A stretch of 64,000 nt of DNA from Gammaproteobacteria bacterium (GTDB taxonomy: Bacteria > Pseudomonadota > Gammaproteobacteria > UBA4575), in NCBI GenBank assembly GCA_965243395.1, contig CBDEUS010000001.1:1088001-1152000 (forward strand), read 5' to 3'. The notes under the pieces were generated by a model. That model was not told the origin of the DNA. It worked only from the letters and a program-made list of their open reading frames with translations, and made no database searches. How positions within the stretch are numbered: the stretch's first letter is position 1; every line of letters starts with the position of its first letter. Below are positions 39,659 through 58,125 of this stretch, piece after piece. A program made the position numbers and the translations under genes.

Positions 39659-40030
39659 TCAGTTATTGGAAAAATATGAACTCAGTAGATCTACCAGTTC
39701 TTTAGGGTCAAATGGCTTCTCGAATACGCCTATTGCTCCATTTTGAATTGCAGTGTCTTTTACGGCTCCATACATAGCGGTGATAAATACAATAGGAATT
39801 ATAGCATTTTCATTGATTAATTTCTGTTGCAATTCAAGACCCGTCATACCAGACATATCTTGATCTAATACTAAAACGCCTTCACTGGGTTTAGGATGTG
39901 CTTCTATAAATGCTTCAGCTGAATGAAATACTTCAACATCATAACCACGTTTTCGTAATATCAAAGTGTGTGAATGACACACTATTCGATCATCATCCAC
40001 TAGATAAATTTTAGTTGCACTTGAAGACAA
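39659..40030 (-). CDS. Single-domain response regulator (FixJ-like receiver)
   Basis: LVDDD, LDQDMSGMTG, FIT, KPF. Confidence 0.88.
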   Translation of the reverse strand: MSSSATKIYLVDDDRIVCHSHTLILRKRGYDVEVFHSAEAFIEAHPKPSEGVLVLDQDMSGMTGLELQQKLINENAIIPIVFITAMYGAVKDTAIQNGAIGVFEKPFDPKELVDLLSSYFSNN

Positions 40031-40481
40031 TCTTGTTTCTCAGTATTTAATGTGAATGATTAATGTAGTAATAGCTTACTACATTAAATTCATACATGCG
40101 CTCTTCATTTTTCTCACTCGATGATGTAGAAAATCTTAAATTAATCATTTTTCGCGTAAAGCGCGTTGTACAAGCACTCAGGAAGACCAAATTCGCATAA
40201 GATGGCCCATCATCCAATAGTAACTGAACTTAAATTTTATCTGAGGTTGCTTCTTCAAAAATTGCACTACTAGAAAGTACAACTTTCAATAACAAAGATG
40301 TGGTTAATATGCGTGATAGTGCAGTTTGAATTTTTTCATCCCAATTAAAATTGGATATACACTAAATTGAACATGGGCTAGATAGGACTATTTTAAACAG
40401 CTATGTTTCCTTGTTGAGGTTTTATATAAGTACGTTTTCACCAAGTTTAATACTCAACAAACAAAATTTCTTTCTTAATGT

Positions 40482-40509
40482 TGGGTAGCTAACCAAGGTT
40501 AGCTACCCA
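40482..40509. repeat. 13-bp perfect inverted repeat downstream of the secreted-protein gene (terminator or stabiliser)
   Basis: TGGGTAGCTAACC-AA-GGTTAGCTACCCA. Confidence 0.7.
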
Positions 40510-40567
40510 CACCCTTAGAAAGGGACCACTAAGATTGGATACTACTTTCTTTTATAAAGTAGATTTT

Positions 40568-42280
40568 TTACCAAGCAGCAATTCCAAAGCCACTACTTGG
40601 AATGTCAGAGTCTGCTTGAACTGGAGGATAGCGACCCTCTAATTGCAAGTCACCCACTCGGCAATCATCATCACCTGTTGGGTTACCAGCCATATCAAGC
40701 TTATCCCAAATCGTATCTTCACCTGCACAATCTTCAATGACTCTGTAAATTGCGATGGTTGTGAAACCACCTGGTGGATACAACCAATCACCTGAGCTAT
40801 TTTGTCCGATTGCAAATGGCACAGGAGTGTTCAATGCATAAAGATATTCAGTGTCCTTTGGATTTTGGCTAAGTGCTAGATCCAATCCACCTGCTTGATA
40901 CAAGAAATCTCTTTGATCGGGCTGAATTATTCCTCTGTCTCCATCGGTTGCTGGAGAGCTGGAAATTCTATGACGGAAGTTTTCCACTACACCAGAGAAT
41001 TGAGGCACACCATCAACAACAGTCACAGGTGGTCCACCGTCTTCCATAATACAAGTTGTTAAATCCATTCTACGAATAGAAATACCTGAGTTGAAGAAGG
41101 CTTGTGCATACACTGTACTGGTACGTGTTGAAATTTGTGACCAACATGTGTCATCACCAAGGTCAGGCTTGTTTGGTTGAATCCGAACTTTGGCACCAAA
41201 CTTGTTGACAGTAAATTGTGAAGTACCGCCTTGACCACGCTGTTGGAAACTACCATGCGTCATTATCACGCAGTCGTTAAAGTTTCGTCCTTTAACAGGC
41301 AATACAGAAAAACCAAAGTTATCATTACCGGAAGTTTCACTTACAACGGGGTTAGTGAAACGTGGAGCAATATCATCTGGGCTAGCTCCATCAAAGTTAT
41401 AACCTAACATTCTCGCTATACCTCTAGCGATACGAGAACGGTCTCGAATAGGAACACCCCTTCTATTTAACTTGATGACTTCCACGATATCATCTTCCGT
41501 ACCATTTCCTAACGCAAAGAAAGTATTACGTTGTGAAACAATCAACTGACGCCCTTCGTTCAAGAATGACATTTGCGCCGGATCACCGTTCTCGTCACGT
41601 GTAGGTCCATGCGCAATTCTTCGGAATGTACCTCTACGATTGTTAAATCTGTAAATCGTAAATGAAGTTCCTTCAAAATTTTCAATCTCTGGACGCTCGC
41701 CACAAGTAATACCTGTGGGGGCTAAGAAACCAACGGGTAAGCCTGGGCAACCGTTGAACTCAACTTCACCGCTACCGGCGTTGACTGTGGCCACTAAGTC
41801 ACGATTAATTCCGAACGCTCTTCGCGAATCGCGATCAACAGAACGTGGTTCTTGACCAACTGTTGATGCTGTATCAGTAAGTGTTACATCACATTTGTTA
41901 ACACGGAATGCAGAAACAGATCCAGCTAAGCTATCACTTGTAGGATCAAATCCAGCATTAATCATCATTACATACTGAGTTCCTCTATACTCTTTTACGA
42001 TTACAGAGAACTGACCTGATGTAACAATGCCGTCATCGTTACCATAGCCACCGGATTCTGCGCGCTGTACTTCTGTAAGAGTTCCATCTGATGCTCTTGC
42101 AAAAACAATCAGGCGGTTTTGCTGTGGATTACCATCATCATCACGCTTTACCCGATTTTCGTTTACATATACCGCGCCTTTGGTTAAGTCATAACCGCAG
42201 TCGCGCGCCATCACACCAGAAAATGGAGCTAATAGAAGCACCATTCCTAGCGATAGCATAATTGATATAGATATTTTCAT
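40568..42280 (-). CDS. Secreted Cys-rich protein, probable lactonase-like beta-propeller (start ATG 42280)
   Basis: RBS GGAGGGAGG before ATG 42280; signal peptide MKISIS...GVMA; GAVYVNEN...NRLIVFARASDGTL....ESGGYG, GSVSAFRV, DTCW, YLYALN, C-terminal GFGIAAW. Confidence 0.7.
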   Translation of the reverse strand: MKISISIMLSLGMVLLLAPFSGVMARDCGYDLTKGAVYVNENRVKRDDDGNPQQNRLIVFARASDGTLTEVQRAESGGYGNDDGIVTSGQFSVIVKEYRGTQYVMMINAGFDPTSDSLAGSVSAFRVNKCDVTLTDTASTVGQEPRSVDRDSRRAFGINRDLVATVNAGSGEVEFNGCPGLPVGFLAPTGITCGERPEIENFEGTSFTIYRFNNRRGTFRRIAHGPTRDENGDPAQMSFLNEGRQLIVSQRNTFFALGNGTEDDIVEVIKLNRRGVPIRDRSRIARGIARMLGYNFDGASPDDIAPRFTNPVVSETSGNDNFGFSVLPVKGRNFNDCVIMTHGSFQQRGQGGTSQFTVNKFGAKVRIQPNKPDLGDDTCWSQISTRTSTVYAQAFFNSGISIRRMDLTTCIMEDGGPPVTVVDGVPQFSGVVENFRHRISSSPATDGDRGIIQPDQRDFLYQAGGLDLALSQNPKDTEYLYALNTPVPFAIGQNSSGDWLYPPGGFTTIAIYRVIEDCAGEDTIWDKLDMAGNPTGDDDCRVGDLQLEGRYPPVQADSDIPSSGFGIAAW

Positions 42281-42312
42281 ATCCTCCCTCCTAGTAGTCA
42301 TAAGATACGAGA

Positions 42313-42624
42313 CATGCAGTTGCGATCATGCAAAGCAATCCGCAAATAACTTCATCACTGAAGTGCATGCTTCATTTTTTTGAAATTTAGTTTTGATTGT
42401 TTAAGAACGTCGCCTTAATCAAATCTAACTAAATTTCATTTGCCACTGCGTAAACACGCAGCGAACAAAACTAAAATTCGTAGATTGATTCAGGCTGGTA
42501 CGAGGCCTGTAAGAATTGAAACGTCAAAGTTTTGGACGTTTGATGGCTCTTAATTGTATTAAGAGTAAAGAAATGGACTGTGTTTAGGTCCGTGAGTGAA
42601 TTTCAAAGATTTTGGAAATTACTC
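42313..42624 (-). ncRNA. Highly structured leader with candidate ANTAR dual-hairpin site
   Basis: About nine consecutive inverted repeats; tandem A1/G4 hexaloop hairpins at 42349-42364 and 42329-42344. Confidence 0.55.
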
Positions 42625-42791
42625 TTTTATGCTTATATTTAGCTATGCTTTATAGGCCAATAATGCAATTAAATCAAGGACTAATCGACTTTTTTAGATT
42701 GAATTAAAATTCAATTTTGCGAAACTTGATAAATTTTAGTGAGTTACACCAAGATTTCTTAATTTACTTAAAGCACTTAGCTTAAATAAGG

Positions 42792-43415
42792 TTAATTTAA
42801 CTTGGCTTGGGATCGCTCAAACATATCGCCCGTAAAACGGTTTACATTGTCAATCGATTTCACTAGCTCGGAAGCGATCAAACCTACCTTTTTGCGTTGA
42901 TTTCGAGATTCTGTACGTAACATCTCAAATGCTTGATCACTACTGATGTTAAAGCGCGCCATAAGAATGCCAATCGCAATGCTTGTTTCACGCCCTTGCT
43001 GCAAAGCTATGTTTAATTGTGACTCAGTCTGTTTCAGTGACCTGATATCCTCTGCCCGTTGCATCGCTGACTCAATAGTAGGTAACACATGCTGTACATC
43101 AATAGGTTTGACTAAATATCCTAGTGCACCGGCATTAGCCGCTTCTGTGACAAACTCATCATCTGAATATGCAGAGAGAAATATACAAGAAACATCTGCT
43201 TTATCCCTGAGCTCCAGGGCAGCATCGACGCCTGAAATATCAGGCATTCTAAAATCCATAATGGCAAGATCAGGTTTGACTTCACAACCGATTTCTACAG
43301 CTTGCTTACCATTCTCTGCCTCTAAGACATCGAAATCATACTGACGCAGGTTTTTAGCTAGAGTAACCCGAATTACGCGGTCATCATCCGCGAGTAGTAT
43401 TTGTGCTTTAGACAT
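42792..43415 (-). CDS. REC-ANTAR response regulator (EutV/PdtaR/NasT architecture)
   Basis: LADDD, MDFRMP, FLSA, KP receiver; AIGILMARFNISSDQAFEMLRTESRNQRKKV ANTAR domain; RBS GGAGG. Confidence 0.93.
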   Translation of the reverse strand: MSKAQILLADDDRVIRVTLAKNLRQYDFDVLEAENGKQAVEIGCEVKPDLAIMDFRMPDISGVDAALELRDKADVSCIFLSAYSDDEFVTEAANAGALGYLVKPIDVQHVLPTIESAMQRAEDIRSLKQTESQLNIALQQGRETSIAIGILMARFNISSDQAFEMLRTESRNQRKKVGLIASELVKSIDNVNRFTGDMFERSQAKLN

Positions 43416-43597
43416 GCTTCTCCTCCAAGTAGCAGACCTAAATTATAATTTTTTTATAGTTATAAAGGATCTTCGTCCTTTTGCTTAACAAGTTTAACAG
43501 ACTTTAATTAAACTTGAATTTACTTTAATTAAATTTTAATTTTGCAATAATTAGCTATAATATTTCTTATTATTATTAATACTTTATCAGCTAATTA

Positions 43598-46500
43598 TCA
43601 TATTGCTTCTAGAATATTGAGCTCTGAAGCTAACATATTTAAAACAACCGGTGGGTAAAGTGTAAGCGTTGCTTTTACATAATTATCGACTTGTTCATAC
43701 TGTAACTCAGCACCTTCTGGTGGCATTAAAGACTGCACCATCCCTAGGCCCACACCCCCACTCTCCAAATTCTCATCAAAATCAAATGAGTCCAGTTTCT
43801 CAATGATATTGGCGACAGCGATCTCAACCTTGTCGTCTTGATTTTTTATTATTACTCGCACTCCATTTGAATCGACAGCTTCTACTGCACGATGCTTCAT
43901 TGCATTGGTGACTAATTCAGAAATAATAAGTGACACTGCTACGGTCTCTTCTTCCCATAACTCTAAATGCTCGGAATCTTCACACAGCACTTCAAAAGAA
44001 ATTTCTTGGGAAAATAATTTACTTGATGCTTGTGTTATACGACTAACAAGTTCAACCAAATTTACTAACCTATACTCAGAATCAATCATCAAATTATTAA
44101 CAATAGAAATAGTATCTACCTGGTTAATAGAAGTTACCAAAACATCACGAAGTTGAGGATACGTATCTAAATTGACTTTTAATAACCCAACGATTGCTTG
44201 TAAATTATTTTTAATACGATGTCGCATTTCACGACTGACTTCATCACGTTGCACCTTAATATGATCAAGCCTCTCTTGCTGGCTTGTACTACGCTGAGTT
44301 ATATCTCGACATAATATTCTCAGCTCTCGTGGCATACCTGCTTGAGCTTGGATCAAACGTAACCGTTGGTGAGTATTTATAAGATCACCCTCTTTTGTAA
44401 GCATTCGCACTTCCATTTCAAACTCATTCACTTGATCTTCAAAAACAACACTAAAGTGACGACTGGCACGACGAATATCATTCTCGTGAATCAAGTTCCA
44501 AATTGGTTTATGCAACAACTCATCTTTTTCATATCCTAAATATTCTGAGCAAAATTGATTCACGGATTGAATAATGCCGTTAGCATCAACTGAGAAATAC
44601 ATATCCGGTGCATTTTCGTATAAATCCTGCAATCTATTTTGACTTCGAAGCAATTGTTGTTCCATTTCAACGCGTTCACTAACATCATGAACAAGAGCCA
44701 AACATGTTTGGTTTGATTTAAATAAATTAGCCGATTTAGACGCTGCCCATTCTGTATGCTTAACTTTTCCTTCGGCATCCTGAATTTGCAAACTAAACTG
44801 GTTTTCATTTGCATCAGCTTCCAACATGTATTTATGCAGTTTATCTAAGGCTTCCTTCTGATTTGGGTGTTTTAATGGCCAGTGGTTTGGTGACTTCCCG
44901 AAGACTTCATTCTCACTCCAACCTAAAATTTGCCTGGCTTGTTCAGACCATCTTGTTATAGCGCCCTCAACATTCCATTCGATGATGGCCGTAGGAGAAT
45001 TTTGCAAATGCAGATCCAATGTTTGTTTGGCTTTTTCCTGTCTTTGTTCAGCAAATTGGCTTTGTAATCGATTTGATATCCACTCCGCCATCATCTGCAC
45101 ATACTGTATTTCACTGTCTGTAAATTCATCTGCACGTGGTTCAATACTAGAAAAATTTAAAGTGCCGTAAGGTCTATTATCCAAATACACTGGAGCACCA
45201 ATATAGGCTTCAAGCTGAAGTTCAGAATACGCGGGATGATGAACAATCTCAGTCTGCTTGGCATGCGCAAATCCCATTGCATTTCTCGATTCAATTAATA
45301 ACTGACAATAGGTCAACCCTAGTTCAAATTTATCACCTGATTGTATTTTATAAGATGATGATGTGGTGTGTACTTGCATCACAGTATAACGATCGCCCTC
45401 TATATAAGAAAAAATTCCACATTTCATATCTAAATGCTGACAACCACTTACTAGCAAACATTGTATTTGGTTATGTAGAGTGGTTTCTTCTACTGAAATA
45501 ATAGAATAAAAAGAATGTAAGGCATCTTCATTACGCCGTAATGCAATTTCAGCATGTTTACGTTTGGTAATATCCGCGGTCGTTCCAATCACTCGTAATG
45601 GTTTTCCATTTTCATCGCGTTCTAAAATTCGGCCACGATCATGCACCCATCGCCATTCACCTGACTTGTGTTTAAGACGATGTTCATGCTCATAAAAATC
45701 GGTATCACCTTGTATGTGAGCATTAAACGCATGTTTTGTTTCGTTTAAGTCATTTTTGTGAATCAAAGATTCCCATGGGTGCTTGTCATGCAATAGCTCT
45801 TCTTTTAAATAACCTATTAATTCATACCAGCGATCATCGAAATAAAATTCATCCTTACCTAAATCTATTTCCCATACACCATCTTGTGTACTTTCCAACG
45901 CAAGCTGTAAGCGTTGCTGCTGTTTGCGCACTTTCTCTGTGGCTTCGAATCGTCGTTGACGGTCTTTTTGATACAAATAAAACGCAATAACAACTGCAGC
46001 AAGAATCGCTAAAAACTTAAGCAGCCCGTTAAGAATGATATCTTTCAATCTTTCAGAGAATAACGTTGCATTATGAAGCGATACCACATCCCACTGTGTA
46101 CCACTAATGGAAGCCACTGCACCTACACGTTGCATATCATCGGGCTCTAAATAAACATCATTGACTAATTCTAAATCTGTGCCTGGAGTAGCTAATTCGA
46201 CAAACCCTGGTACATCTTGGCGCCACAGTACAAGCTGGTAATCAACATTTTGATGTTTGTAAAGTAGTGGTTGTACTAATTCAGGTGGAAAGCTAACACC
46301 GAAAATTCCAAGAAAATTATTTTTGTGATTCCAAGGAACAATAATATTGAAATGGTCATGCTCAGAATTACGATGCATTCGCACAGCGTACTCTATCTGA
46401 CTTTCACTGATTGACGGCAATAAATAAACTTCTGGTTTGTTTTGCTGTGTGCCATCCGAATCAATTATTAATTTGCCTTGCTTATCCCATATAAGAAAAT

Positions 46501-46927
46501 TAAGTGCATCAGGGTAGCTACTACTAATCTCACGATTAAGTATTCTAATTGCGGGAGAATCAGTCTTTTTACTTTGCTTGGCTTCATTTAGTAACTCAGT
46601 ATGATTCTCAGCAAACATACCCAGACTGTATTCCATCTGCTCAACATAATTCGCTATTTCATTAGCTGCAGACCATGATGAGCGCTGCATCAATTCTGTT
46701 TGAGACTTTTCGAATTGCGAGTAGTGCTCCCAACCACTCCACAGAAGCAAAGCTAAAACAACAGACAATAGGAACACTACAACTGAAAGCGGAACCCTTT
46801 GCTTAACAAAAGGTAACTTCGCAGTTGAAGCAAACCAAGTTTTGCTATCAGCCGAGATAACTCCTCCTTTACGGCAACCTCCCAACCAATGCGTTACTCT
46901 TATAATTCTTACTCGATGTACGAGCAC
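43598..46927 (-). CDS. Membrane sensor kinase: TM-periplasmic-TM, PAS, GAF, PAS, PAS, HisKA_2, HATPase (start uncertain)
   Basis: Two TM segments; DGVWE..., AYIGAPVY..YGTLNF GAF; EMRHRIKNNLQ H-box; ELVTNAMKH; GVGLGMV. Confidence 0.88.
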   Translation of the reverse strand: MLVHRVRIIRVTHWLGGCRKGGVISADSKTWFASTAKLPFVKQRVPLSVVVFLLSVVLALLLWSGWEHYSQFEKSQTELMQRSSWSAANEIANYVEQMEYSLGMFAENHTELLNEAKQSKKTDSPAIRILNREISSSYPDALNFLIWDKQGKLIIDSDGTQQNKPEVYLLPSISESQIEYAVRMHRNSEHDHFNIIVPWNHKNNFLGIFGVSFPPELVQPLLYKHQNVDYQLVLWRQDVPGFVELATPGTDLELVNDVYLEPDDMQRVGAVASISGTQWDVVSLHNATLFSERLKDIILNGLLKFLAILAAVVIAFYLYQKDRQRRFEATEKVRKQQQRLQLALESTQDGVWEIDLGKDEFYFDDRWYELIGYLKEELLHDKHPWESLIHKNDLNETKHAFNAHIQGDTDFYEHEHRLKHKSGEWRWVHDRGRILERDENGKPLRVIGTTADITKRKHAEIALRRNEDALHSFYSIISVEETTLHNQIQCLLVSGCQHLDMKCGIFSYIEGDRYTVMQVHTTSSSYKIQSGDKFELGLTYCQLLIESRNAMGFAHAKQTEIVHHPAYSELQLEAYIGAPVYLDNRPYGTLNFSSIEPRADEFTDSEIQYVQMMAEWISNRLQSQFAEQRQEKAKQTLDLHLQNSPTAIIEWNVEGAITRWSEQARQILGWSENEVFGKSPNHWPLKHPNQKEALDKLHKYMLEADANENQFSLQIQDAEGKVKHTEWAASKSANLFKSNQTCLALVHDVSERVEMEQQLLRSQNRLQDLYENAPDMYFSVDANGIIQSVNQFCSEYLGYEKDELLHKPIWNLIHENDIRRASRHFSVVFEDQVNEFEMEVRMLTKEGDLINTHQRLRLIQAQAGMPRELRILCRDITQRSTSQQERLDHIKVQRDEVSREMRHRIKNNLQAIVGLLKVNLDTYPQLRDVLVTSINQVDTISIVNNLMIDSEYRLVNLVELVSRITQASSKLFSQEISFEVLCEDSEHLELWEEETVAVSLIISELVTNAMKHRAVEAVDSNGVRVIIKNQDDKVEIAVANIIEKLDSFDFDENLESGGVGLGMVQSLMPPEGAELQYEQVDNYVKATLTLYPPVVLNMLASELNILEAI

Positions 46928-47055: not shown

Positions 47056-49347
47056 TTACCATTTAATTCCATGGTGCTCAATGGCTTTAATTTTGGCTTC
47101 TGAATTGCTCAATTCCGGAATATCTAATCCATCCAGCTTGTTACGTAATTCTTGTGTTGCTTCTCTTGCCTCAGATGCATTTCGAATTGCAGTAGGAGTG
47201 ATAAGAACGAGAAGCTCTGTGCGCTCAGATGACTTGGTTGTAGTACCGAACAATGGGCCCAGTACTGGTAAATTACGTAATCCTGGGACACCTATGTTGC
47301 CATCAGAATTTGTATCTTGAATAAGGCCCCCAAGTACAATTGTATCGCCACTCGGGACAGAAACTGAGGTGCTTACTTCACGTTGATCAATTGTAGGTGA
47401 ATCTATTGCAGATGAAGTCGTGGGATTTGCAGTACGTATATTTTGATAGATATCCATTACAACCGTACCATTTTGACTCACTCTGGGTGCTACTTGCAGC
47501 GTCACACCTGTTTCAACAAACTGAATAGTACTTGTCACTAAATCACTTGTACCCGTATTCGTAGATTCTGAAGTACGCACAGGGACTTGATCACCTACAT
47601 TTATTGAAGCCGTATGATTATCAAGCACCATTAATGACGGTGATGAAAGAACTTGCATCTTGTCATCTTGAGCAAGCGCACTTAGAACAGCTCGAACAAT
47701 TCCACCCGAATCTACTAATGAATAAGAAAATCCACCGTTTGTAGTCGCACCAATTAGTCCTGCATCTGCACCACCTACACCATCACCTAATCTACCAATA
47801 CCCGTATTTCCATCAATGTCATTATTTCTGAAAAACCACTGTGTTCCATATTCCAAATCACCTGTGAGTTCTACTTCTACAATAGTAGCTTCAAGCAATA
47901 CTTGTAATGGCGAAATATCTAAACGTTTAATTGCATCTTCTATGTCTTTATATTCTTCATTTGTGGCTTTTACTACCAAAGCATTATTTTCTTCATCAGC
48001 AATAATTTTAATTGGACTGTTATTATTACCACTTCCATTCGTTCCACTATTGAATGTATCTGAAGAAGAAAAACGTTCTGTATTAGGACTTAAACTTCCT
48101 GGCAGTGAAGCACCTGCACCAGTTGGAACACCTGCGCTTATTCCATCAGCATCGCCACTAATAAATCCAGAATCCGAATTACCAATACCAGAGCTTTGAC
48201 TCACTCCACCCGATAATCCAGGTGCTAGGGCAGCAGGATCTTGTCCTTCTTGCGTGGATACGTCCGCATCAAATAACTCCGACAATATTTGCGCTAAGTA
48301 TCCAGCACGTAAATTTTGTACAAAATATACGTGCAAGGTGCGTGCAATGGTGTTATCGACCCGATCTAAGCGATCGATCCACTGTGAAACCGTATTTAAA
48401 TAACGACGCTGTGGAGTTATAGCGAGAATTGCATTTAAACGTTCTATTTCAACAAAGCGTAAAATATCGACTTGTTTCTCTTGTCCACTAAAACCAAAAA
48501 TTGAATTTAATTCTTCTATAACTTTTTTAGCAGAAGATGAGGTCAATCTGAAAATGGCAGTAGACATCCCTTTGAATTGATCTACATCAAATATCTCCAC
48601 TGTATCCAGCATATTCTTTAATTCCGCCTGGGTACCCGAAACTAACAAAATATTTCTACCAGGATCTGTTTGGATCATGGCATTTTCACCTTGCAAGGAA
48701 CGCAGAACGTTTTTCATTTCTGTTGCTGAAATATACTGCAATGGCACAACAATAATTTGATAACCTTTTTGACGATCTAACTCATAAGAAGGCGTTACTA
48801 CACTACTTAAGCCCTCGCTGGCTGGAAGTATTTGAAAAATTCCTTCATTTTCAGCCAGTACCGCATTGTTAGCTTTGAGTATATTTTCCATCACGGGTAT
48901 CAATGCCTCTTTAGCCAATGGTCGACCCGTTTTAAGGCTGACCGTGCCTGTTACACGCTCATCAACCACATATGCACGACCCAACAAATCTCCAAGAATA
49001 GTCGCAGCAACCTCTTCAATGGGTGCATCTTGAAACATTAATGTGATATCACCAGTAGCACTATCGGATAAACCTGATGATCCAGGTCTTGCTGTAAACG
49101 TACCCGTTCCGGGATAAAACTCTGCAGCACGCTCTTCAGGTTTAGTAGGAGTATTAGATTCTCCATCTGCTGATGTAGCAGTATCAACTTCTATATTTTT
49201 TGTTGAAGTCTTAGCAACATCATCTACGCTAACTTCTGGCTGATTATTAGAAGAATTTGTTGTCGTGCAACCACTGAAAATAAAAACCAACGCTACAAAT
49301 ACAAAATGTAAGCATTTTTGAAAATCTGAAAGTTTGAATCTATTCAT
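47056..49347 (-). CDS. gspD: T2SS secretin, lipoprotein type (start probably ATG 49347)
   Basis: Lipobox IFSGC; N domains; QVLLEATIVEV, VLSSPSLMVLDN, LGGLIQ, ELLVLITP. Confidence 0.93.
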   Translation of the reverse strand: MNRFKLSDFQKCLHFVFVALVFIFSGCTTTNSSNNQPEVSVDDVAKTSTKNIEVDTATSADGESNTPTKPEERAAEFYPGTGTFTARPGSSGLSDSATGDITLMFQDAPIEEVAATILGDLLGRAYVVDERVTGTVSLKTGRPLAKEALIPVMENILKANNAVLAENEGIFQILPASEGLSSVVTPSYELDRQKGYQIIVVPLQYISATEMKNVLRSLQGENAMIQTDPGRNILLVSGTQAELKNMLDTVEIFDVDQFKGMSTAIFRLTSSSAKKVIEELNSIFGFSGQEKQVDILRFVEIERLNAILAITPQRRYLNTVSQWIDRLDRVDNTIARTLHVYFVQNLRAGYLAQILSELFDADVSTQEGQDPAALAPGLSGGVSQSSGIGNSDSGFISGDADGISAGVPTGAGASLPGSLSPNTERFSSSDTFNSGTNGSGNNNSPIKIIADEENNALVVKATNEEYKDIEDAIKRLDISPLQVLLEATIVEVELTGDLEYGTQWFFRNNDIDGNTGIGRLGDGVGGADAGLIGATTNGGFSYSLVDSGGIVRAVLSALAQDDKMQVLSSPSLMVLDNHTASINVGDQVPVRTSESTNTGTSDLVTSTIQFVETGVTLQVAPRVSQNGTVVMDIYQNIRTANPTTSSAIDSPTIDQREVSTSVSVPSGDTIVLGGLIQDTNSDGNIGVPGLRNLPVLGPLFGTTTKSSERTELLVLITPTAIRNASEAREATQELRNKLDGLDIPELSNSEAKIKAIEHHGIKW

Positions 49348-49736
49348 AAAAACCTTATGTTTAACAAGCAAACAAAGAATTGTTTGATAAACACCAAACA
49401 ATTACATAATTAAATGTAAGTTGTATTAAACACGATGGTTAACGCACAATTAATTGCACGCTACCTCCTCCAATATATTTATTATTTTCGATACTTAAGA
49501 GGCTATTGCTCTGAAGCTAATTGCACCAAATTAGTGAGGGCGGGGTCTGGGGCCGTAAAAGGTGCTTATTTATCAATTATTTGTCTACACGTTACGCGGC
49601 AGACTCTAAAGAGTCAATGGAAATCTAAAATACAGTATAAATCTTAAGGTTAAATTATTTTTATTGGGATTAAATAATCAGTGCTTTATTAGTGAGTTAA
49701 CTAAGGACTACAAACAAAGTAAAAAATTTTTAGATT

Positions 49737-50663: not shown

Positions 50664-51254
50664 CTAACTTGTCTCTTCCGCAGCCAAAAAACCTGACACA
50701 TCAAAACGGATATCTAAAGCTTCATCAGAATTATTAGAGTTCTGACTTCTAAAAGTAGTTCGATATCCTCTACCGATATTTATTTTGTCGATTATCAGCA
50801 CTGGAATATGGGCTTCAAGATCATATATGAAATTACGCAAACTACTTATATCTGCACGACAATGCACGGAAACTTTAATTTGACGTTCATCCAGATTTCC
50901 ACTGGTCACTGGTTGAGTGCTTAATATTTTAGCTCCATTACGAGTTAATACATCTTTGATTATTCCTTGTAATTCAGCAGAAATAATCGCGGCTTTACCA
51001 TGCTCAAAATAATATTCTTGTTCCTCATTGTATGCTTGCAACTTTGCTAGTTTGTTTGACAAACCTTTAGTTCTACCAGATATCGCTTTATATTGTGTTA
51101 GTCGATGTTGCAATGATGCAACCTCATCTTTAGTGCTGTTAAACACAGCATAAGCAGGTAGTATTACTAAAAATAATAAAAGCACTACTGCAAAAACAAG
51201 TACTGAAAGTGCAGCTAACTTATGTTTTGATTCTGGCATCTGTGGAATATTCAT
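50664..51254 (-). CDS. gspM: T2SS protein M
   Basis: TM plus coiled coil, AELQ, LRNFIYDLE..IPVLIID; operon position. Confidence 0.82.
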   Translation of the reverse strand: MNIPQMPESKHKLAALSVLVFAVVLLLFLVILPAYAVFNSTKDEVASLQHRLTQYKAISGRTKGLSNKLAKLQAYNEEQEYYFEHGKAAIISAELQGIIKDVLTRNGAKILSTQPVTSGNLDERQIKVSVHCRADISSLRNFIYDLEAHIPVLIIDKINIGRGYRTTFRSQNSNNSDEALDIRFDVSGFLAAEETS

Positions 51255-51266
51255 TATTTTTCTTAA

Positions 51267-52343
51267 CTATGAATTTACTTCACGCTTGATTTGCGCCGTT
51301 ATGGAATAACGCTCCAAGCCATCACCGCCACTTTGTGTGACTGGAGCTGCAAACCGAATATCATCAAACATTCCTGTTTGATCAATCACTGGAATCAATT
51401 CAGACGCTGACGCCGATAAACCTTGGATGGATAGCAGCCCTTCCTCCACACTTAAACGTTGAACATATGTGTGATCAGGCATCACTTGTGTTAATAAATT
51501 TAACATCTCAATGATACTGGGATTGTCCTCTTTAATATTAACTAAATACCCCACTTGATCTTGCATTTTTGAATATTCACTTTGTAACTTTTTTACTTTT
51601 TGTACCGTATGCTCCAAGCTCTCTAGCTCAGACGAAAGTTTATTAATATGAATATAATTAATCGCCAAAGGAGTTACCCCGGTTAAGATTAATAATCCTG
51701 CTGCTGCAGTTGCCAACCATTTGATAGATGAATTGTTATTTCTGTTAATACCTGCTTGTGAACGGAGTAAATTTACCCCACTCAAGTTTTGATCAGGATC
51801 ATCAGCATTAATAATATCAATGCTCTGTAGATGCACATTACTATTTTCAATTGCAGCAACAACAGGATTTAGAATTTCTTTTCTTATAACAATCAACAGT
51901 ACCCTAATGAGCTGTTTATCTTTAAAGCGCTCTTCAATACGATAATCAAAGTAGACATCTTCTTTATCAAATGGAGTATAGCGGTCCATTTCATACTGAA
52001 TCACTTCATATAGATTTTCTTCTGTATTAGCTGGTAATGATACCTGTCGTGTAAGCACTTCACTTTTATCAATATGTACATTTAATGCTAAGCTCTCTTT
52101 TGATGCTTCACTATTAAACAGTTCCTCTAACATTTGAGTTTTGTTTTCTTTTGACTGTTCAATATGTAGTAATAATTCATCACTGCTATTTAGAACTTGA
52201 AGCTGATCCGGATCTAATTTTAATAGTAAAGAATCTTTATTACGCCCAATGTTTTTATTTCTATCTCCAGGCAATAGCAAAAACAACCCCTCTGCCCACC
52301 AGATGAGTAATTCTTTTACGGACTGTGTAATTGAAGATAAAAT
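51267..52343 (-). CDS. gspL: T2SS protein L with PilN-like domain (probable ATT start at 52343; ORF track starts 52286)
   Basis: WWAEGLFLLLP N-terminal motif, YEMDRYTPF..EDVYFD, NLL, TM, LTQVMPDHT, FAAPV. Confidence 0.8.
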   Translation of the reverse strand: MLSSITQSVKELLIWWAEGLFLLLPGDRNKNIGRNKDSLLLKLDPDQLQVLNSSDELLLHIEQSKENKTQMLEELFNSEASKESLALNVHIDKSEVLTRQVSLPANTEENLYEVIQYEMDRYTPFDKEDVYFDYRIEERFKDKQLIRVLLIVIRKEILNPVVAAIENSNVHLQSIDIINADDPDQNLSGVNLLRSQAGINRNNNSSIKWLATAAAGLLILTGVTPLAINYIHINKLSSELESLEHTVQKVKKLQSEYSKMQDQVGYLVNIKEDNPSIIEMLNLLTQVMPDHTYVQRLSVEEGLLSIQGLSASASELIPVIDQTGMFDDIRFAAPVTQSGGDGLERYSITAQIKREVNS

Positions 52344-52417
52344 AGTATGTTCCTGTAGTTATAATTATTATGAATACTTTTGCAGATTATGGTGAAGCAG
52401 CAATTTTAGTTGCTAAT

Positions 52418-53245
52418 TTATCCCAACTTCCACCCTAATATTGCAAAAGGTTCAAACGTATTGCCTCTTTGTAATCGCACAATACATGTAATTGTTGTCG
52501 AGTATCCATTTGGATCTCTAGCATTAACATGCAATGTATAAATTAAACCCCCTGTTTCTGTAAAATAGTCAGTAGAAAAATCTTCACTTTGACCTGCATC
52601 AGTCACATTGTTGAGGGCATTTTTAACTATATTAGAAGCTAATGCAGTGTTGACACCTAAATCTTGTGCATGAATAGTTACATAAGGTTTAACTCTATTA
52701 AAAATCTCTGGTGTCATTCCAAGTAGAAGTGACAACTCATCAATACTATCAAACTCATCATCTTTAGATTCATACGCGAGCCCGTGAGCCGCATAATCCT
52801 GATCTTCTGCTCCATTTGCTCGCTTTAGACTATCCCGATCGCGCCAATCACCTATTGCGCCTGCAATTAATGCGCTGTTTTTGTCGTTTACACCAACTGC
52901 AATGAACAATGATTCTAATAAGTCTATTGGGGCCAGATTAATATCCACTTTCCCTGATTCATCCACAATGGATACAGATATTTTTACATCATCTATTTGA
53001 TAACTATAGTTTGGTTTTTTAATTATGTAGCCTTGCAGTTCATCACGACTAATTAGCTTATGTACACTTAACATTAAAGCACCTTCCGCTGCATGTTTAG
53101 TTTTAAAACTACTTACAACATTATTAGCCAAACTCAAACTGGCGCGAGCTTGGTATGAAACTGAACCAGCAATTACAGCTAAAAATGCTGTAATCCATAA
53201 TACGGTTATTAAAGCAAATCCCTTATGTGTACGATGCATAGACAT
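52418..53245 (-). CDS. gspK: Minor pseudopilin K
   Basis: GFALITVLW, DESGKVDINLA, DWRDRD, GAE..DY. Confidence 0.9.
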   Translation of the reverse strand: MSMHRTHKGFALITVLWITAFLAVIAGSVSYQARASLSLANNVVSSFKTKHAAEGALMLSVHKLISRDELQGYIIKKPNYSYQIDDVKISVSIVDESGKVDINLAPIDLLESLFIAVGVNDKNSALIAGAIGDWRDRDSLKRANGAEDQDYAAHGLAYESKDDEFDSIDELSLLLGMTPEIFNRVKPYVTIHAQDLGVNTALASNIVKNALNNVTDAGQSEDFSTDYFTETGGLIYTLHVNARDPNGYSTTITCIVRLQRGNTFEPFAILGWKLG

Positions 53246-53877
53246 TACGGTAAAACATAAGCTCCATATCTTGTTTCAACGATCAATGGTGGCCATTCAA
53301 CGGATTCAACAATTGGTTCAAGGGATATAGAAACTTTTGTTGGAAGTGCGCTTTGATTCAGCCAGTTTTTATACCAATTTAATACTCCGGTTTTTTTATT
53401 TACACCAAAGTACTCAAACTTAATATTTTTAACATTTTTAATTAATTTTACATCTCGTCCACTAAACCGCGCCTTGCCTGAAAAATAACTATTTGCAGGC
53501 AGATACCGTACGCTTAGATTCAATGCACCATTTTGTTTTTGCTTAAAAATTTCATAAATATAAAGATAATCATCTAAACCATATTGAGGAGAACGTGCTA
53601 GAAAGATCATCCTGTCTGCATCACCATTAAAATATTTATTTTTTGATTTATCTTCTTGAATGGGATAAAAAACAGCCTCACTTAGTACCTTACGCAAAAA
53701 ACGCTGTGCACTGACAACTTCATCTAGGTTATTTTGATGTTCATCAACTTTTGCCCACACCTTATTTCCAAAAGTAAACCCATTTACACACAGTGTTACT
53801 ACAATTGAAATGATGACAAGCGAAATCAGTAGCTCGATTAAAGTTAATCCCGATTGATGAAGTGTATGTTTATTCAT
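53245..53877 (-). CDS. gspJ: Minor pseudopilin J
   Basis: GLTLIELLI prepilin site, W...LP, WPPL; operon position. Confidence 0.85.
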   Translation of the reverse strand: MNKHTLHQSGLTLIELLISLVIISIVVTLCVNGFTFGNKVWAKVDEHQNNLDEVVSAQRFLRKVLSEAVFYPIQEDKSKNKYFNGDADRMIFLARSPQYGLDDYLYIYEIFKQKQNGALNLSVRYLPANSYFSGKARFSGRDVKLIKNVKNIKFEYFGVNKKTGVLNWYKNWLNQSALPTKVSISLEPIVESVEWPPLIVETRYGAYVLP

Positions 53878-53882
53878 TTTTA

Positions 53883-54275
53883 CTAGGCACTTGCTAATCT
53901 GAAAGTCATTGTCTTTAAAGAACGCATACCTTTTTTACTTTTCCAAAATACATTCAACACAATTTGATACCGATTCACTTTTTCAATTGTGTTATTTGAT
54001 GCATCCAAAGCTTGAACCTCTAATTTCCAGTGATATCGGTTGTTATAAGCACCCTCACTCACGCTTGGCAATGTGTCTACTCTTATTCCGATTTCGGCCA
54101 GATGTGAATCTGCATACATAGACGCTTGAGCATAATCGTCTGCAAGACTAGAACCTTGTAATGCTGAGGAAAAAGCTTGATAGGCAACGCCGAGCGAAAT
54201 GGCCAACACTGATAGAGCCACCAGCGTCTCTAATAAGGTAAATCCATTTAAGTGTCTATATTTATTATTAACCAT
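53883..54275 (-). CDS. gspI: Minor pseudopilin I
   Basis: GFTLLETLVAL; size and operon position. Confidence 0.85.
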   Translation of the reverse strand: MVNNKYRHLNGFTLLETLVALSVLAISLGVAYQAFSSALQGSSLADDYAQASMYADSHLAEIGIRVDTLPSVSEGAYNNRYHWKLEVQALDASNNTIEKVNRYQIVLNVFWKSKKGMRSLKTMTFRLASA

Positions 54276-54744
54276 GACTTAGTTCGACTTTGCCGGACAA
54301 CCATTCCACAACAATACGGTATGTTTTTTTCCCATTTGAAATATTAATTTCTCCGCCAGATGAACTGCCATCAGGTGCAAAGTGAATTTGTGAAATGTTT
54401 TTATTAGCTTTTAAATCCCGCGCAGAGAACATTTGCAAGTCCAGAGATGAATCTAAAGCTCTTTGGCGCTTGTTTCCTACTATCCAATAAATTCTTTTTT
54501 CATTATCCAATGCAAAAGAAACCTCTTTGCGTTTAGTAATTGCTGCTATCCGGGCTTGTCTTAATGTCACTAAAATATCTTGTGATGTGGCTTTTAATGC
54601 AGCGCTGGATGAAAGTCGGCTATAGGCCGTTGCCGAAATCGCCGTAATGCTGATTGCTATGACGAGTGTTATTAATAACTCAATTAGTGTAAAACCAGAG
54701 TAAGTACCATATGTATTATGTGATTTTAATTGCAAAGCATTCAT
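54268..54744 (-). CDS. gspH: Minor pseudopilin H
   Basis: GFTLIELL, F.PDGSSSGG, VEWLSGKV. Confidence 0.88.
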   Translation of the reverse strand: MNALQLKSHNTYGTYSGFTLIELLITLVIAISITAISATAYSRLSSSAALKATSQDILVTLRQARIAAITKRKEVSFALDNEKRIYWIVGNKRQRALDSSLDLQMFSARDLKANKNISQIHFAPDGSSSGGEINISNGKKTYRIVVEWLSGKVELSHG

Positions 54745-54749
54745 TTACA

Positions 54750-55175
54750 TTAGTTCCAGCTAAATACATCCTGATTCTCTTTTTCTCCACCTTCCGCACC
54801 ATCTGCACCCAGGCTATAAATTTCATATTCAGCATTTCTACCGGGATAACGATAAAGATAATCTTTTTTCCACGGATCTTGCGGAACAAAATTCTTACGC
54901 AAATAAGGACCGTTCCAACCGTCTACACCGGCGGGTTGTTGCACAAGTGCTTGCAAGGTTTGCTCAGTAGTTGGGTAACGATTGGTATCAATTTTATACA
55001 TTTCCAATGCTGAAGAAAGTTCTTCGATTTGAATTTTGGCTGCTTTGGTTTTTGAGTCACCTAAACGTTTCATAACTTGTGGTCCCACTATTCCAGCAAG
55101 CAAGGCCAAAATCGCCACTACAACCAACAATTCAATTAACGTAAATCCTTTATGGGTCATATTATTTTTTATCAT
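54750..55175 (-). CDS. gspG: Major pseudopilin
   Basis: GFTLIELLVV, YPTTEQ.L.AL, WNGPYL, DPW, SLGADG.EGGE. Confidence 0.96.
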   Translation of the reverse strand: MIKNNMTHKGFTLIELLVVVAILALLAGIVGPQVMKRLGDSKTKAAKIQIEELSSALEMYKIDTNRYPTTEQTLQALVQQPAGVDGWNGPYLRKNFVPQDPWKKDYLYRYPGRNAEYEIYSLGADGAEGGEKENQDVFSWN

Positions 55176-55191
55176 ACTTATTACTCTTTAA

Positions 55192-56412
55192 TTATGTCGC
55201 TAAGTCATTAATGCTCACCATGCCAAGCAAAATAGATACAATAATTCCTCCAATCATTACGCCCAGCAATATGATGATAGCTGGTTCAAATAAATTAACT
55301 ACTCTCTGCATGGCATTTGAAGTTTCTTTTTCATAAATTTCTGAGACACGTTTTAACATACTGTCTAACTCACCTGTTTCTTCGCCTACTTTAATCATTT
55401 GTAATGCTAAAGATGGAAATAAATTTGCATTACTTAACGTTTGAAACAAACTTTTGCCTTCTTTAAATTGCTCCATCGCTTTACTGATGTTCTCAAGAAA
55501 TAAACTATTGGAGAGATTAGCTTTAGCTATCGGAAGTGCTGATAACACTGGTACACCATTCGATAGCAAGCTACCTAAGCTGCTGGTGAATTTTGCGGTT
55601 TCATGCTTTACCAATAAATCACCAAAAACTGGAAGTCTCAAAAATCTCGCATCCCAAAATGCACGATATTTTGGGGATTTAAATAAGTATCGTAGTAATA
55701 AAATGAGTGAAATCAACGCAATAATAATTACCCACCAATAATTGCTAACGTAATCCGAAATATTTATTACTATTTTAGTAGCAATCGGCAGCAATTCTTC
55801 ATTACCTTCGAATAACTCAGTAATTTTAGGCACCACAAAAGTCATAATGATAAACAAAGATGCTATAGAGACTACAACCAATATCATTGGATAAATTAGT
55901 GATGAAATTAATTTATCACGCATGGTTTTAGCGCTCTCTAAATAAGCATGCATGCGAGATAATCCAATTTCTAAATTACCACTGGCTTCAGAAGCACGAA
56001 CCATATTTACATAGTAAGGGCTAAAAATTGTTTTTTGCTTCTCTAATGCACTAGATAAATCATTTCCAGATTCAACATCTTCTAATAAATTAGCTGACAT
56101 ATTGCGAACATTTTCGTGTTCCGAAAGATCTTTAAAAATACGTAAGGCATGATCAACAGGTAATTTAGCTTTTACCAATGTAGAAAGTTGTTCAGTAAAA
56201 GAAAGTAATTGGCTTGCTGTAATTGATTTTTTAGAGACTTTGAAATAATCGACTAATGCACTTCTTGATGTAGATTTAGCTTCTTTTGCATAAATTGGGA
56301 TGTAACCAGAATTTTGCAACCAATTAATTACTTCAGAATGATTACGCTCTTCACGCTGTCCTTCGAAGATTTTTCCCTCGGGAGTAGTCGCTTTGTATTC
56401 AAAATTTGGCAT
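55192..56412 (-). CDS. gspF: T2SS inner membrane platform protein
   Basis: ASEASGNL, LIYP, VGEETGEL, FEP; three TMs. Confidence 0.93.
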   Translation of the reverse strand: MPNFEYKATTPEGKIFEGQREERNHSEVINWLQNSGYIPIYAKEAKSTSRSALVDYFKVSKKSITASQLLSFTEQLSTLVKAKLPVDHALRIFKDLSEHENVRNMSANLLEDVESGNDLSSALEKQKTIFSPYYVNMVRASEASGNLEIGLSRMHAYLESAKTMRDKLISSLIYPMILVVVSIASLFIIMTFVVPKITELFEGNEELLPIATKIVINISDYVSNYWWVIIIALISLILLLRYLFKSPKYRAFWDARFLRLPVFGDLLVKHETAKFTSSLGSLLSNGVPVLSALPIAKANLSNSLFLENISKAMEQFKEGKSLFQTLSNANLFPSLALQMIKVGEETGELDSMLKRVSEIYEKETSNAMQRVVNLFEPAIIILLGVMIGGIIVSILLGMVSINDLAT

Positions 56413-56427
56413 GATTTTTTAAAGAAC

Positions 56428-58125
56428 TTATGCATCCTGCGTGACACGAAGTATTTCTTCCAATGAAGTAACCCCTTGCGCAACTTTTTGTAACCCATCT
56501 TGATACATTGTTTTCATACCTTGCTGTAAAGCAGCATTTTCAAGTGTTGTGGCATCAGCGTGTTCAAGAATCAACTTTCGAATTTCATCAGTTATCATTA
56601 GCAATTCAAGAATACAAATTCGGCCACTGTATCCGGTATGATGACAGGCATCACAACCGCCATCGGCGACATACATATGTTCTGTCTTTACATCAGGCCC
56701 TAACTCATCCTTAATTTTTGCAGGCATCTCGGTTTTTGTTTTACATTCATCACATAAAACACGTACTAACCGTTGAGCAACAACTGCGTTTAGTGTAGAT
56801 GTTAATAAATAATCTTCTACGCCCATTTCCATTAAACGCGTAACACTGCTTGCAGAATCATTTGTATGTAACGTTGACAAAACCAAATGCCCTGTTAATG
56901 CAGATTGCACACAAATTTCTGCAGTTTCCAAGTCACGCATCTCACCAACCATAATTACATCGGGATCTTGTCGTACAATAGAGCGCAATGCATTTGCAAA
57001 TGTTAAGCCGATACTAGCCTTAGCTTGAATTTGATTTATGCCCTCTAGTTGGTATTCAACCGGATCTTCAACTGTAATGATTTTACGTCGCGGTTCATTC
57101 AATAAACTAAGTGCAGTATATAAAGTAGTTGTTTTACCACTACCCGTCGGACCTGTAAGCAAAATCATGCCATGCGGTTGACTCAATGCATTTATAAATT
57201 TGTCATGATCTCCTTGCTGGAACCCTAATGCTTTAAAATCCAATACGACAGATTCTTGATTAAGCAACCTCATAACCACGCTTTCGCCATGCATAGTAGG
57301 TACGGTGGAAATTCGCATGTCGAAATCACGACCCTGAATGCGATTACGAATTCTTCCATCTTGAGGTAAACGTCGTTCCGCAATATTTAACTTCGCCATG
57401 ATTTTAATTCTGGAAATCACTGCTGCTGCAAACTGACGTGGCGGAGACTCAACCTCTTGTAATACACCATCAATGCGATAACGTACTTTTAAGTCGCCTT
57501 CGAAAGGTTCAATATGAATATCAGATGCGCCCTGTTCGGCTGCACGTTGTATTATTAAATTAACTAAGCGTATAACAGGTGCTTCACTGGCTAGATCTTT
57601 TAATTGGTCCAGCTCATCATCTGAAATTTCGTCAACACTTACTTCATCTATAATTTGATTCATTTTGCTAGAATCAAGCCCTGATATTTGATTTATAACA
57701 TCATCAATATCAGACAATGTACCAATGCGAACTTCTATGCTTTTTCCCGTTGCAATCCGTATTGCATCCACAACATTTTGATCTAACGGGTCAGCCATAG
57801 CCAAAACGATCTTGTCATCATTTTGATCCAAAGGAACTGAAGAATTTTCTTTTAAAAACCGAGGAGAAATTGCACCATTCAAAATTGCTTCATTAGGATA
57901 TTCACTCCGTTGCACAACAGGCAATGCAAGAAGGCTACCTAATGCATCGGCAATATCTTTATCGCTCACTACACCTAAACGATTCAACATCGAAACAAAA
58001 GAAACATCCGGAGTTTCTTCCTGCATACGTTTAATTTTCGACAGATCAATGTCACGCAGTTTTGAACTGCGCTGCAGATAGTCCGCAATGTCCTCATTGG
58101 ACAAATTTGTAGCGATATTCGACAT
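56428..58125 (-). CDS. gspE: T2SS ATPase
   Basis: ASDIHIEP, GPTGSGKTTT, EDPVE, RQDPDVIMVGEMRD, CxxC zinc pairs. Confidence 0.96.
   Translation of the reverse strand: MSNIATNLSNEDIADYLQRSSKLRDIDLSKIKRMQEETPDVSFVSMLNRLGVVSDKDIADALGSLLALPVVQRSEYPNEAILNGAISPRFLKENSSVPLDQNDDKIVLAMADPLDQNVVDAIRIATGKSIEVRIGTLSDIDDVINQISGLDSSKMNQIIDEVSVDEISDDELDQLKDLASEAPVIRLVNLIIQRAAEQGASDIHIEPFEGDLKVRYRIDGVLQEVESPPRQFAAAVISRIKIMAKLNIAERRLPQDGRIRNRIQGRDFDMRISTVPTMHGESVVMRLLNQESVVLDFKALGFQQGDHDKFINALSQPHGMILLTGPTGSGKTTTLYTALSLLNEPRRKIITVEDPVEYQLEGINQIQAKASIGLTFANALRSIVRQDPDVIMVGEMRDLETAEICVQSALTGHLVLSTLHTNDSASSVTRLMEMGVEDYLLTSTLNAVVAQRLVRVLCDECKTKTEMPAKIKDELGPDVKTEHMYVADGGCDACHHTGYSGRICILELLMITDEIRKLILEHADATTLENAALQQGMKTMYQDGLQKVAQGVTSLEEILRVTQDA

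Follow-up and report, generated by a model that had tools for sequence, protein, structure and literature searches.

ANTAR regulators form a large family whose predicted targets, according to the author summary of PMC3369931, are mostly concerned with nitrogen metabolism. The RNA motif, as set out in the parts of PMC3369931 on which we draw throughout, consists of two hairpins of at least 3 bp with hexaloops bearing A at the first and G at the fourth position, joined by a short linker, the second hairpin overlapping a terminator. The locus described here shares features with two known systems. As in PdtaS/PdtaR of mycobacteria, a GAF-PAS sensor with a HisKA_2 kinase is paired with a regulator in which a receiver (REC) domain is joined to an ANTAR domain; as in EutW/EutV of Enterococcus faecalis, the regulator gene adjoins a long leader, which carries a dual A..G.. 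hexaloop like that of the eut leaders (PMC3369931). The locus lies in a stretch of 64,000 nucleotides (nt), referred to below as the window, comprising positions 1,088,001-1,152,000 of contig CBDEUS010000001.1 from a Gammaproteobacteria bacterium (UBA4575; assembly GCA_965243395.1). On the minus strand of the window a HisKA_2 kinase, the REC-ANTAR regulator, a gap of 511 nt, a gene for an exported beta-propeller protein and a lone receiver follow one another, and this block of five elements is directly downstream of a complete Xps-type type II secretion system (T2SS) cluster. We consider the chance about even that this is a system of the PdtaS/PdtaR (EutW/EutV) type which controls the adjacent exported-protein operon at the RNA level, through its leader.

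An earlier interpretation of the same DNA, made without database searches (the sequence-only reading), had placed the five elements on one strand, with a T2SS immediately upstream and no eut, nas or ami target genes in view. All five are present on the minus strand where it placed them, the secretion cluster proves to be complete in NCBIfam and Pfam searches, and family searches, as far as they covered the open reading frames (ORFs) of the window, revealed no eut, nas or ami genes. Unlike PdtaS, the window kinase has two transmembrane segments, an outer domain and extra PAS domains. The pair also differs from PdtaS/PdtaR in its gammaproteobacterial host and in having as its neighbouring candidate target an exported-protein operon beside a T2SS.

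The kinase and the REC-ANTAR regulator

The regulator (207 aa; 43415..42792, minus strand) matches the Pfam family Response_reg with an E value of 2.4e-25 and the ANTAR family (PF03861) with 45.2 bits (cut-off 27.3), the match extending over positions 2-54 of the 54 in the profile. Its best match in the Protein Data Bank (PDB) is EutV (6wsh/6ww6), to which it aligns over its full length (E 3.8e-30), and it also aligns with Rv1626/PdtaR (1s8n) over residues 5-185 (E 2.2e-28), which confirms that the protein is of the REC-ANTAR type as first proposed. D54 corresponds in the alignment to Asp54 of EutV, which is phosphorylated there, and does not vary among the 12 orthologues. The other acidic residues and the Lys of the receiver stand in their usual sequence contexts on inspection, D54 being the only one of these residues matched by alignment.

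Upstream of the regulator lies a sensor histidine kinase of 1109 aa (46927..43598, minus strand), for which Pfam, NCBIfam and inspection of the sequence indicate, in order, a first transmembrane segment, an outer domain, a second transmembrane segment, PAS_3, GAF, two further PAS domains, HisKA_2 and a divergent ATPase domain. The hydrophobic segments, read from the sequence, occupy residues 45-64 and 299-321. The outer domain of ~235 aa between them gives a weak match to dCache_1 (24.7 bits against a cut-off of 45), and a structure model of this domain reached a predicted local distance difference test (pLDDT) score of 51.9, which is too poor to search with, so that the fold of the sensor has only the weak dCache_1 match as a hint. 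TIGR00229 recognises three PAS stretches, and HisKA_2 (PF07568) reaches 39.9 bits, the cut-off being 22.3. In the H-box, EMRHRIKNNLQ, the His is residue 903 (read from the sequence), and HR(I/V)KN is invariant in 10 orthologous kinases. In the alignment of orthologues the N-box SEL.TNA.KH is kept, and only the close clade has the GG.G.G block. The architecture given in the sequence-only reading (membrane segments, three PAS domains, GAF and H-box EMRHRIKNNLQ) is therefore upheld by the family searches and the sequence.

The same reading had presented a membrane-anchored version of the HisKA_2/ANTAR system, which holds for the window, with its two hydrophobic segments, but not for deeper relatives (loci L009-L012 of the comparison described below), whose kinases are soluble. 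Their orthologues are of 639-644 aa in L010-L012 and 795 aa in L009, have no N-terminal membrane part, as in PdtaS, which is cytosolic in the portion of the literature cited here, and start after the position of the second transmembrane segment of the window kinase; in L010, gspD ends only ~70 nt upstream of the kinase. On this comparison of sequences the anchor is lineage-specific, the membrane-anchored sensor having been added within the clade onto a soluble, PdtaS-like core.

Conservation of gene order

A scan of one genome per species yielded 13 loci (L001-L013), all on contigs of metagenome-assembled genomes, in which neighbouring genes were located by tblastn with the window proteins. 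The loci are labelled Gammaproteobacteria, Thiotrichales or Pseudomonadota, bar one on a 2.8-kb contig of an Acidimicrobiales metagenome-assembled genome (L002, CAZGVQ010000553.1), where the propeller is 77% identical to that of the window; this is probably a binning error.

The ANTAR gene is directly upstream of the propeller gene in 11 of the 13 loci, the other two (L002 and L013) having less than 140 nt of upstream flank. The kinase stands upstream of the ANTAR gene in 10 loci, L006 beginning at the ANTAR gene itself, and gspD stands upstream of the kinase in nine, L006 and L007 ending before it. All loci without a kinase, gspD or ANTAR neighbour are at contig ends. The lone receiver is found downstream in 10 loci. 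The order kinase-ANTAR-leader-propeller, which called for comparison with related genomes, is thus kept in every locus with enough flank, even where proteins are only about 50% identical: in L009-L012, with propellers 50-52% and kinases 41-44% identical to those of the window, the genes are still adjacent. Further indirect evidence comes from the sequence clusters of the two families, as 17 of 55 propeller clusters share with a regulator cluster a longest contig of the same size. The flanking MsrPQ and GlpK genes gave no tblastn match in L010-L012, and the L009 contig ends inside the propeller gene.

Structure and conservation of the leader

The gap between the ANTAR and propeller genes measures 511 nt in the window and 483-670 nt in all 12 sequences that make up the leader comparison. 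It contains a promoter-like element, TTGATT-N17-TATAAA (42649..42677, minus strand), which is conserved in 12 of 12 leaders and implies a predicted 5′ untranslated region of ~353-446 nt; the last base of its -10 hexamer is A, not T. The structured 5′ leader (42269..42648, minus strand) was characterised by folding against shuffled sequences, RNAalifold and counts of paired columns. In the window it folds better than 100 of 100 shuffles (z = -3.6). RNAalifold applied to eight close sequences gives nine local helices with 63 pairs, all on the minus strand, namely H0 (42626..42594), H1 (42591..42575), H2 (42565..42547), H3 (42540..42520), H4 (42509..42491), H5 (42462..42442), H6 (42437..42382), H7 (42364..42349) and a hairpin that holds the start codon of the propeller gene (42284..42269; 6 bp with a GAAA loop). 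A tenth helix, a long-range one of two pairs, was left out of the pair count.

Of the cells belonging to these 63 pairs, 93.1% are paired (88.0% in shuffles), and 17 pairs show compensatory change against 5.9 in shuffles, none of 500 shuffles reaching as high a count; because the structure was derived from the same sequences that were used for these counts, the comparison favours structure. When the partners were slid by 1-3 columns as a control, 32-42% of cells were paired and 4-7 pairs were two-sided. Most of the compensatory changes are held by H0, H2, H5 and H7, while H3 (ACGUC/GACGU as against AUGGC/GCCAU), H4 and H5 covary across both clades. In the place of the long H6 stem the far clade has another complementary pair. 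The start codon is inside a hairpin in both clades with different partners, and L008 (10018-10033) retains this hairpin by one two-sided change that also alters a codon. On this comparative evidence the leader is structured and conserved, in agreement with the hairpin-rich gap of ~0.5 kb that had been claimed for it.

A possible long-range pairing of 4 bp joins the H1 loop CCUA (columns 78-81 of alignment A2, ~42588..42585) to UAGG just 5′ of the Shine-Dalgarno sequence (columns 496-499). It becomes CCCA:UGGG in the far clade, and this change represents one evolutionary event. A kissing interaction between the H1 and H5 loops, sought by eye, was rejected as it is not conserved in L003. No Rfam family matched the leader, whether in a search of 39000-47500 at E<=1 or of the leader at E<=10, where the only names returned were microRNA, CRISPR and small nucleolar RNA families at chance level.

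Is the leader a target of the ANTAR regulator?

In a strict scan for dual hexaloops, with stems of at least 5 bp and linkers of at most 20 nt, the leader of the window gave one match, ACUUC-AGUGAU-GAAGU followed by a 4-nt linker and UGCGG-AUUGCU-UUGCA (42364..42329, minus strand). Both stems have 5 bp, and the element is 49 nt upstream of the ATG. It is the sole strict match on both strands of the 64-kb window (128 kb of scanned strand), and such elements arose in three of 5000 dinucleotide shuffles of the leader. The 11 RNA contacts of EutV given in the part of PMC8934654 used here were mapped onto the alignment of the regulator with EutV, with a numbering offset of 2 deduced from the Y/R/M/N/R/R pattern. 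Six of them (K143R, Y164F, R168, N173, R175 and R177K) are unchanged or conservatively substituted. The suggestion that this is a dual-hairpin leader of the ANTAR type is borne out in so far as one canonical dual hexaloop is present in the window, but it fails in the close relatives and in the want of an overlapping terminator, as set out below.

The mechanism that we propose would start from a HisKA_2 kinase which, in the lineage of the window, gained an N-terminal periplasmic sensor with two transmembrane segments. This kinase would phosphorylate the REC-ANTAR protein, and the activated regulator would then bind the hairpin-rich leader of ~360 nt made from the conserved promoter. Binding would set expression after initiation, by way of read-through, the stability of the mRNA or the accessibility of the start codon. 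As its target we propose the Sec-exported seven-bladed propeller, whose di-haem oxidoreductase partner in the operon of relatives has been deleted here. The transfer of phosphate, the contact with RNA and its site, the sign of the regulation and any passage of the protein through the adjacent T2SS are inferences in this scheme.

A number of observations weigh against such a mechanism. The ATPase domain of the kinase remains under the Pfam cut-offs (HATPase_c_2 24.2 against 27.4; HATPase_c 19.2 against 26.4), and phmmer found no match for the kinase core among PDB sequences. In the regulator five of the 11 EutV contacts are changed (R142G, K147I, K149I, E160S and M172R), and these differences hold in 12 of 12 orthologues. 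According to the same part of PMC8934654, the changed positions include two of the three residues that co-ordinate G4, together with the Met that is reported to be essential and is proposed as a possible determinant of loop size. In the leader, the strict dual hexaloop is present in none of seven close relatives (L001 and L003-L008). The stem of H7, which is the first hexaloop hairpin, covaries, with a loop that varies between AGUGAU, AAUCAU, GUUGGA, UGG and others, and on our reading of the alignment a U-tail follows H7 in ~5 of the eight close leaders. A terminator scan found no intrinsic terminator overlapping the second hairpin; the minimum free energy fold of the window leader adopts alternative pairings, without a stem followed by a run of U. 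The linker is 4 nt as against 5-12 nt in eut RNAs, where shortening of one linker to 3 nt impaired induction (PMC3369931, as far as it is drawn on here). Taken over the 12 leaders tested, a single strict match is of borderline significance. Under relaxed rules duals were found in four of 12 leaders, three of the four loci being interrelated, and their apparent enrichment (0.74/kb in leaders against 0.26/kb in the background) was set aside as not significant. Along with the absence of eut genes from the window, the missing terminator, short linker, changed contacts and lack of conservation of the motif distinguish the locus from EutW/EutV, as far as PMC3369931 and PMC8934654 are used here.

The altered residues extend well beyond this locus. 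Neither Lys at the position of EutV K149 nor Met at that of M172 occurs in any of the 12 orthologues or of the 117 top homologues, and the presence of the substitutions in all 117 points to a broad ANTAR subfamily, some members of which are automatically named NasT or PdtaR. We found no description of the RNA specificity of this subfamily, although no search was aimed specifically at it. PAL (6hmj), another matching ANTAR protein, is likewise without the Met; PAL binds a different RNA.

Three of the four far relatives (L009, L011 and L012) have a covarying A..G.. hairpin with a loop of 6-7 nt; ~20 nt further downstream follows the hairpin UUUC-AUGGGA-GGAG, within which the Shine-Dalgarno sequence lies. 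These duals were found under relaxed rules only, and their Shine-Dalgarno sequence would be conserved in any case. The overlap of the second hairpin with the Shine-Dalgarno sequence is reminiscent of actinobacterial ANTAR RNAs associated with translational repression, which overlap ORF starts in the part of bioRxiv 10.1101/660928 cited here; the far relatives are unlike those RNAs in having loops of 6-7 nt and linkers of ~20 nt, and the motif of the window stops 49 nt short of the ATG. Possible sites of action are the hexaloops of the window, the conserved 5′ hairpins, or the hairpins at the Shine-Dalgarno sequence and start codon. Separately, L008 has a canonical dual A..G.. hexaloop at 2575-2615, just past the stop of the gene before gspD, with 5 bp in each stem and a linker of 9 nt. 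It was rejected as a signal, since it is not conserved in the window and fits the background of 12 such pairs over all loci.

It is possible that the kinase/ANTAR pair does act on the leader by recognising a non-canonical motif within the conserved 5′ half, the hexaloop of the window being incidental, although we think this improbable. H1, H3 and H4 in that half have stems of 5-6 bp and loops of 9-10 nt which are A-rich and mostly begin with C. They recur at fixed positions, H1 and H4 in 12 of 12 leaders and H3 in 11 (the pattern search missed it in L011), and H3 and H4 carry compensatory changes between the two clades. A regulator with Ile for EutV K149 and Arg for M172 in all orthologues, belonging to a group in which none of 117 top homologues keeps the Lys or the Met and which resembles PAL in lacking the latter, would be consistent with a different recognition signature. 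Against this, the loop sequences of these hairpins are alike only in part, that of H3 differing in the far clade, nothing ties the hairpins to the regulator, and the substituted subfamily is so large, with members automatically named NasT or PdtaR, that the substitutions need not alter specificity. An extension of this idea that we hold equally doubtful is that a large ANTAR subfamily with Ile or Val for the G4-binding Lys and Arg for the loop-sizing Met would read another signature, namely leader hairpins with 9-10-nt loops, and would thereby link a signal from the periplasm with the production of an exported propeller/di-haem redox system co-evolving with the T2SS.

The conserved structure could also exist for reasons that need no ANTAR motif at all, if the leader were an autonomous cis-regulatory RNA or were acted on by some other factor (a small RNA with Hfq, a CsrA-type protein or a ligand), with the kinase/ANTAR pair acting on other transcripts in trans and its adjacency inherited. 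We judge this unlikely. The placing of the start codon in hairpins with different partners in the two clades, with one compensatory change in L008, and the possible CCUA:UAGG pairing that becomes CCCA:UGGG in the far clade would suit such an RNA, and as MsrPQ and GlpK are also syntenic in the close clade, part of the synteny reflects plain relatedness. However, the adjacency of kinase, ANTAR and propeller genes outlasts a change of flanking genes in L010-L012, known REC-ANTAR systems commonly act on neighbouring operons (as for eut, within the part of PMC3369931 used), and no Rfam family matched. Highly improbable, in our estimation, is that the promoter-like element drives a separate small RNA of ~280 nt ending at H7, with the propeller gene expressed by read-through or from another start. 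Such an RNA would accord with the short stem and U-rich sequence of H7 in ~5 of eight close leaders, on our reading of the alignment, and with the region downstream of H7 being the most variable and the one with insertions; yet by the same reading the U-tail is lacking in three of the eight close and all four far-clade leaders, the terminator scan is empty here, and the leaders share no second promoter-like element ahead of the propeller gene.

The exported propeller protein and its operon

The candidate target of the proposed PdtaS/PdtaR-type control encodes a protein of 570 aa (42280..40568, minus strand) belonging to a rare family. Comparison with relatives assigns its start to the ATG at 42280, which comes immediately after AGGAGGGAGGA, rather than to the first ATG of the ORF at 42301, and because of this conserved start the gap is 511 nt and not the 490 nt to the first ATG. 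The N-terminus, MKISISIMLSLGMVLLLAPFSGVMA, looks like a signal peptide on inspection. In 20 homologues eight of the nine Cys residues are invariant and one is nearly so, and the blocks NGCPGLP, HGSFQQR and DTCW are conserved. The Pfam family Lactonase (PF10282) scores 17.4 bits, below the cut-off of 21.7, and NCBIfam gives no match for the protein. An AlphaFold model built from an alignment (pLDDT 73.4; predicted template modelling score, pTM, 0.80) was compared with known structures by Foldseek. The best PDB matches are seven-bladed propellers of the lactonase type (3fgb, 3scy, 1ri6, 4qrj and 6nau), with target template modelling scores (TM-scores) of 0.58-0.67 at 10-12% identity, followed by the propellers of N2O and nitrite reductases, and a language-model atlas relates the protein to lactonase clusters at 0.95. 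The modelled fold is that of a seven-bladed propeller closest to the PF10282 lactonase type.

Among the PF10282 propellers, YbhE/Pgl and its kin (1ri6, 3fgb, 3scy) are the best structural matches, from which the protein differs in being ~200 residues longer and exported, in its nine conserved Cys and invariant HGSFQQR and DTCW, and in its link to a di-haem oxidoreductase in relatives. The earlier description of a secreted, Cys-rich beta-propeller is accordingly sustained as to the fold and the signal-peptide-like N-terminus but not as to Cys content, nine residues amounting to 1.6%. The family is represented by 55 clusters in a set at 90% identity, all of them unnamed or termed 'hypothetical', some homologues carrying PF10282; a profile search of 1.84 billion representatives returned 15 at E<=1e-30 and 21 at E<=1e-10. 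With its conserved adjacency and signal-peptide-like N-terminus, the protein is no more than a candidate substrate of the neighbouring T2SS.

In relatives the propeller gene is followed by a di-haem oxidoreductase (PF06537, with two CxxCH motifs in the translations) and then by proteins of ~229 aa and ~119 aa. The oxidoreductase is found in 10 of 12 loci with downstream flank, L003 having a fragment only and L013 none. By tblastn the window has no gene for the oxidoreductase or the small proteins. Comparison of the 537-nt gap after the propeller gene (40031..40567, minus strand) with relatives by blastn reveals, on the same strand, a conserved palindrome after the propeller stop codon (40508..40483), a remnant of the 5′ end of the oxidoreductase gene comprising its first codons (40339..40304), and a remnant of the 3′ end of the last, small-protein gene (~40155..40106). 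Relative to all related loci the window carries a deletion of ~3 kb that has left these ends of the oxidoreductase and small-protein genes behind. Judged from these alignments, the propeller gene is normally the first of an operon that also encodes a di-haem oxidoreductase and two small proteins, all of them deleted here. In L003 (9002-10744 and 11780-13393) the propeller gene is duplicated in tandem, the second copy (79% identity to the window protein) coming after a 142-aa fragment of the oxidoreductase.

The block ends with a single-domain FixJ-type receiver of 123 aa, an orphan here (40030..39659, minus strand; Pfam and NCBIfam, Response_reg E 2.8e-20). Such a lone receiver had been named as the last element, and it is indeed present, but deeper relatives pair it with a second kinase. 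In four loci, L008 and L010-L012, the receiver is preceded by a MASE1-PAS-HisKA-HATPase kinase whose end meets or overlaps the receiver start (14612-17081 in L008; 14618-17117 in L010); this kinase is absent from the window and, apart from L008, from the close clade. Its position directly before the receiver in these four loci makes it likely that the receiver comes from a second system, and the lone receiver of the window is probably the remnant of a second two-component system.

The neighbouring secretion cluster and other features

The Xps-type T2SS cluster runs in the order gspA, B, E, F, G, H, I, J, K, L, M, an unassigned ORF of 305 aa and gspD. gspA to gspM occupy 61186..50664 (minus strand; Pfam and NCBIfam), and the gene for the GspD secretin, the last of the cluster, lies at 47056..49401 (minus strand; TIGR02517, 479 bits against a cut-off of 351). 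GspE, GspG and GspM exceed their NCBIfam cut-offs, whereas GspF (373 against 424 bits) and GspH-K are below theirs. GspL has weak PilM-type matches only, and GspA and GspB were identified through Pfam. The core genes gspD, E, F, G and M are found together in this one cluster. Downstream of the lone receiver are msrP, msrQ and glycerol genes.

For gspD, both a promoter-like element of its own, TTGACT-N17-TAACGT, and a leader containing the GC-rich block GGCCCCAGACCCCGCCC are conserved (window 49402..49736), so that the secretin gene seems to be a transcription unit separate from gspE-M. An exact 11-mer, TAACTCACTAA, occurs at 42746..42736 and 49699..49689 (both minus strand), upstream of the promoter-like elements of the propeller gene and gspD respectively; it was discarded as a shared operator since the gspD copy is not kept in L003, L004 or L008. 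Two PAS-GGDEF-EAL proteins flank the region (21028..23934 and 61431..63788). PdtaS and NasT each bind cyclic di-GMP according to the portions of bioRxiv 10.1101/615575 and PMC10783516, respectively, that are cited here.

Implications

In the titles and abstracts searched, no paper connected ANTAR regulators either with type II secretion or with the propeller family described here, and we found nothing relevant on ANTAR together with HWE, HisKA_2 or transmembrane kinases, or on DUF1111, lactonases and propellers. The locus represents a conserved case in which the likely target of an ANTAR regulator is an operon for an exported, redox-type protein beside a secretion system. Within the clade the sensor has moved to the membrane, and the textbook RNA motif is not conserved despite a strongly structured leader. 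If the regulator binds the leader, the locus would offer a tractable test of how far RNA recognition by ANTAR proteins can drift, and would provide a first functional handle on a rare family of exported propellers.

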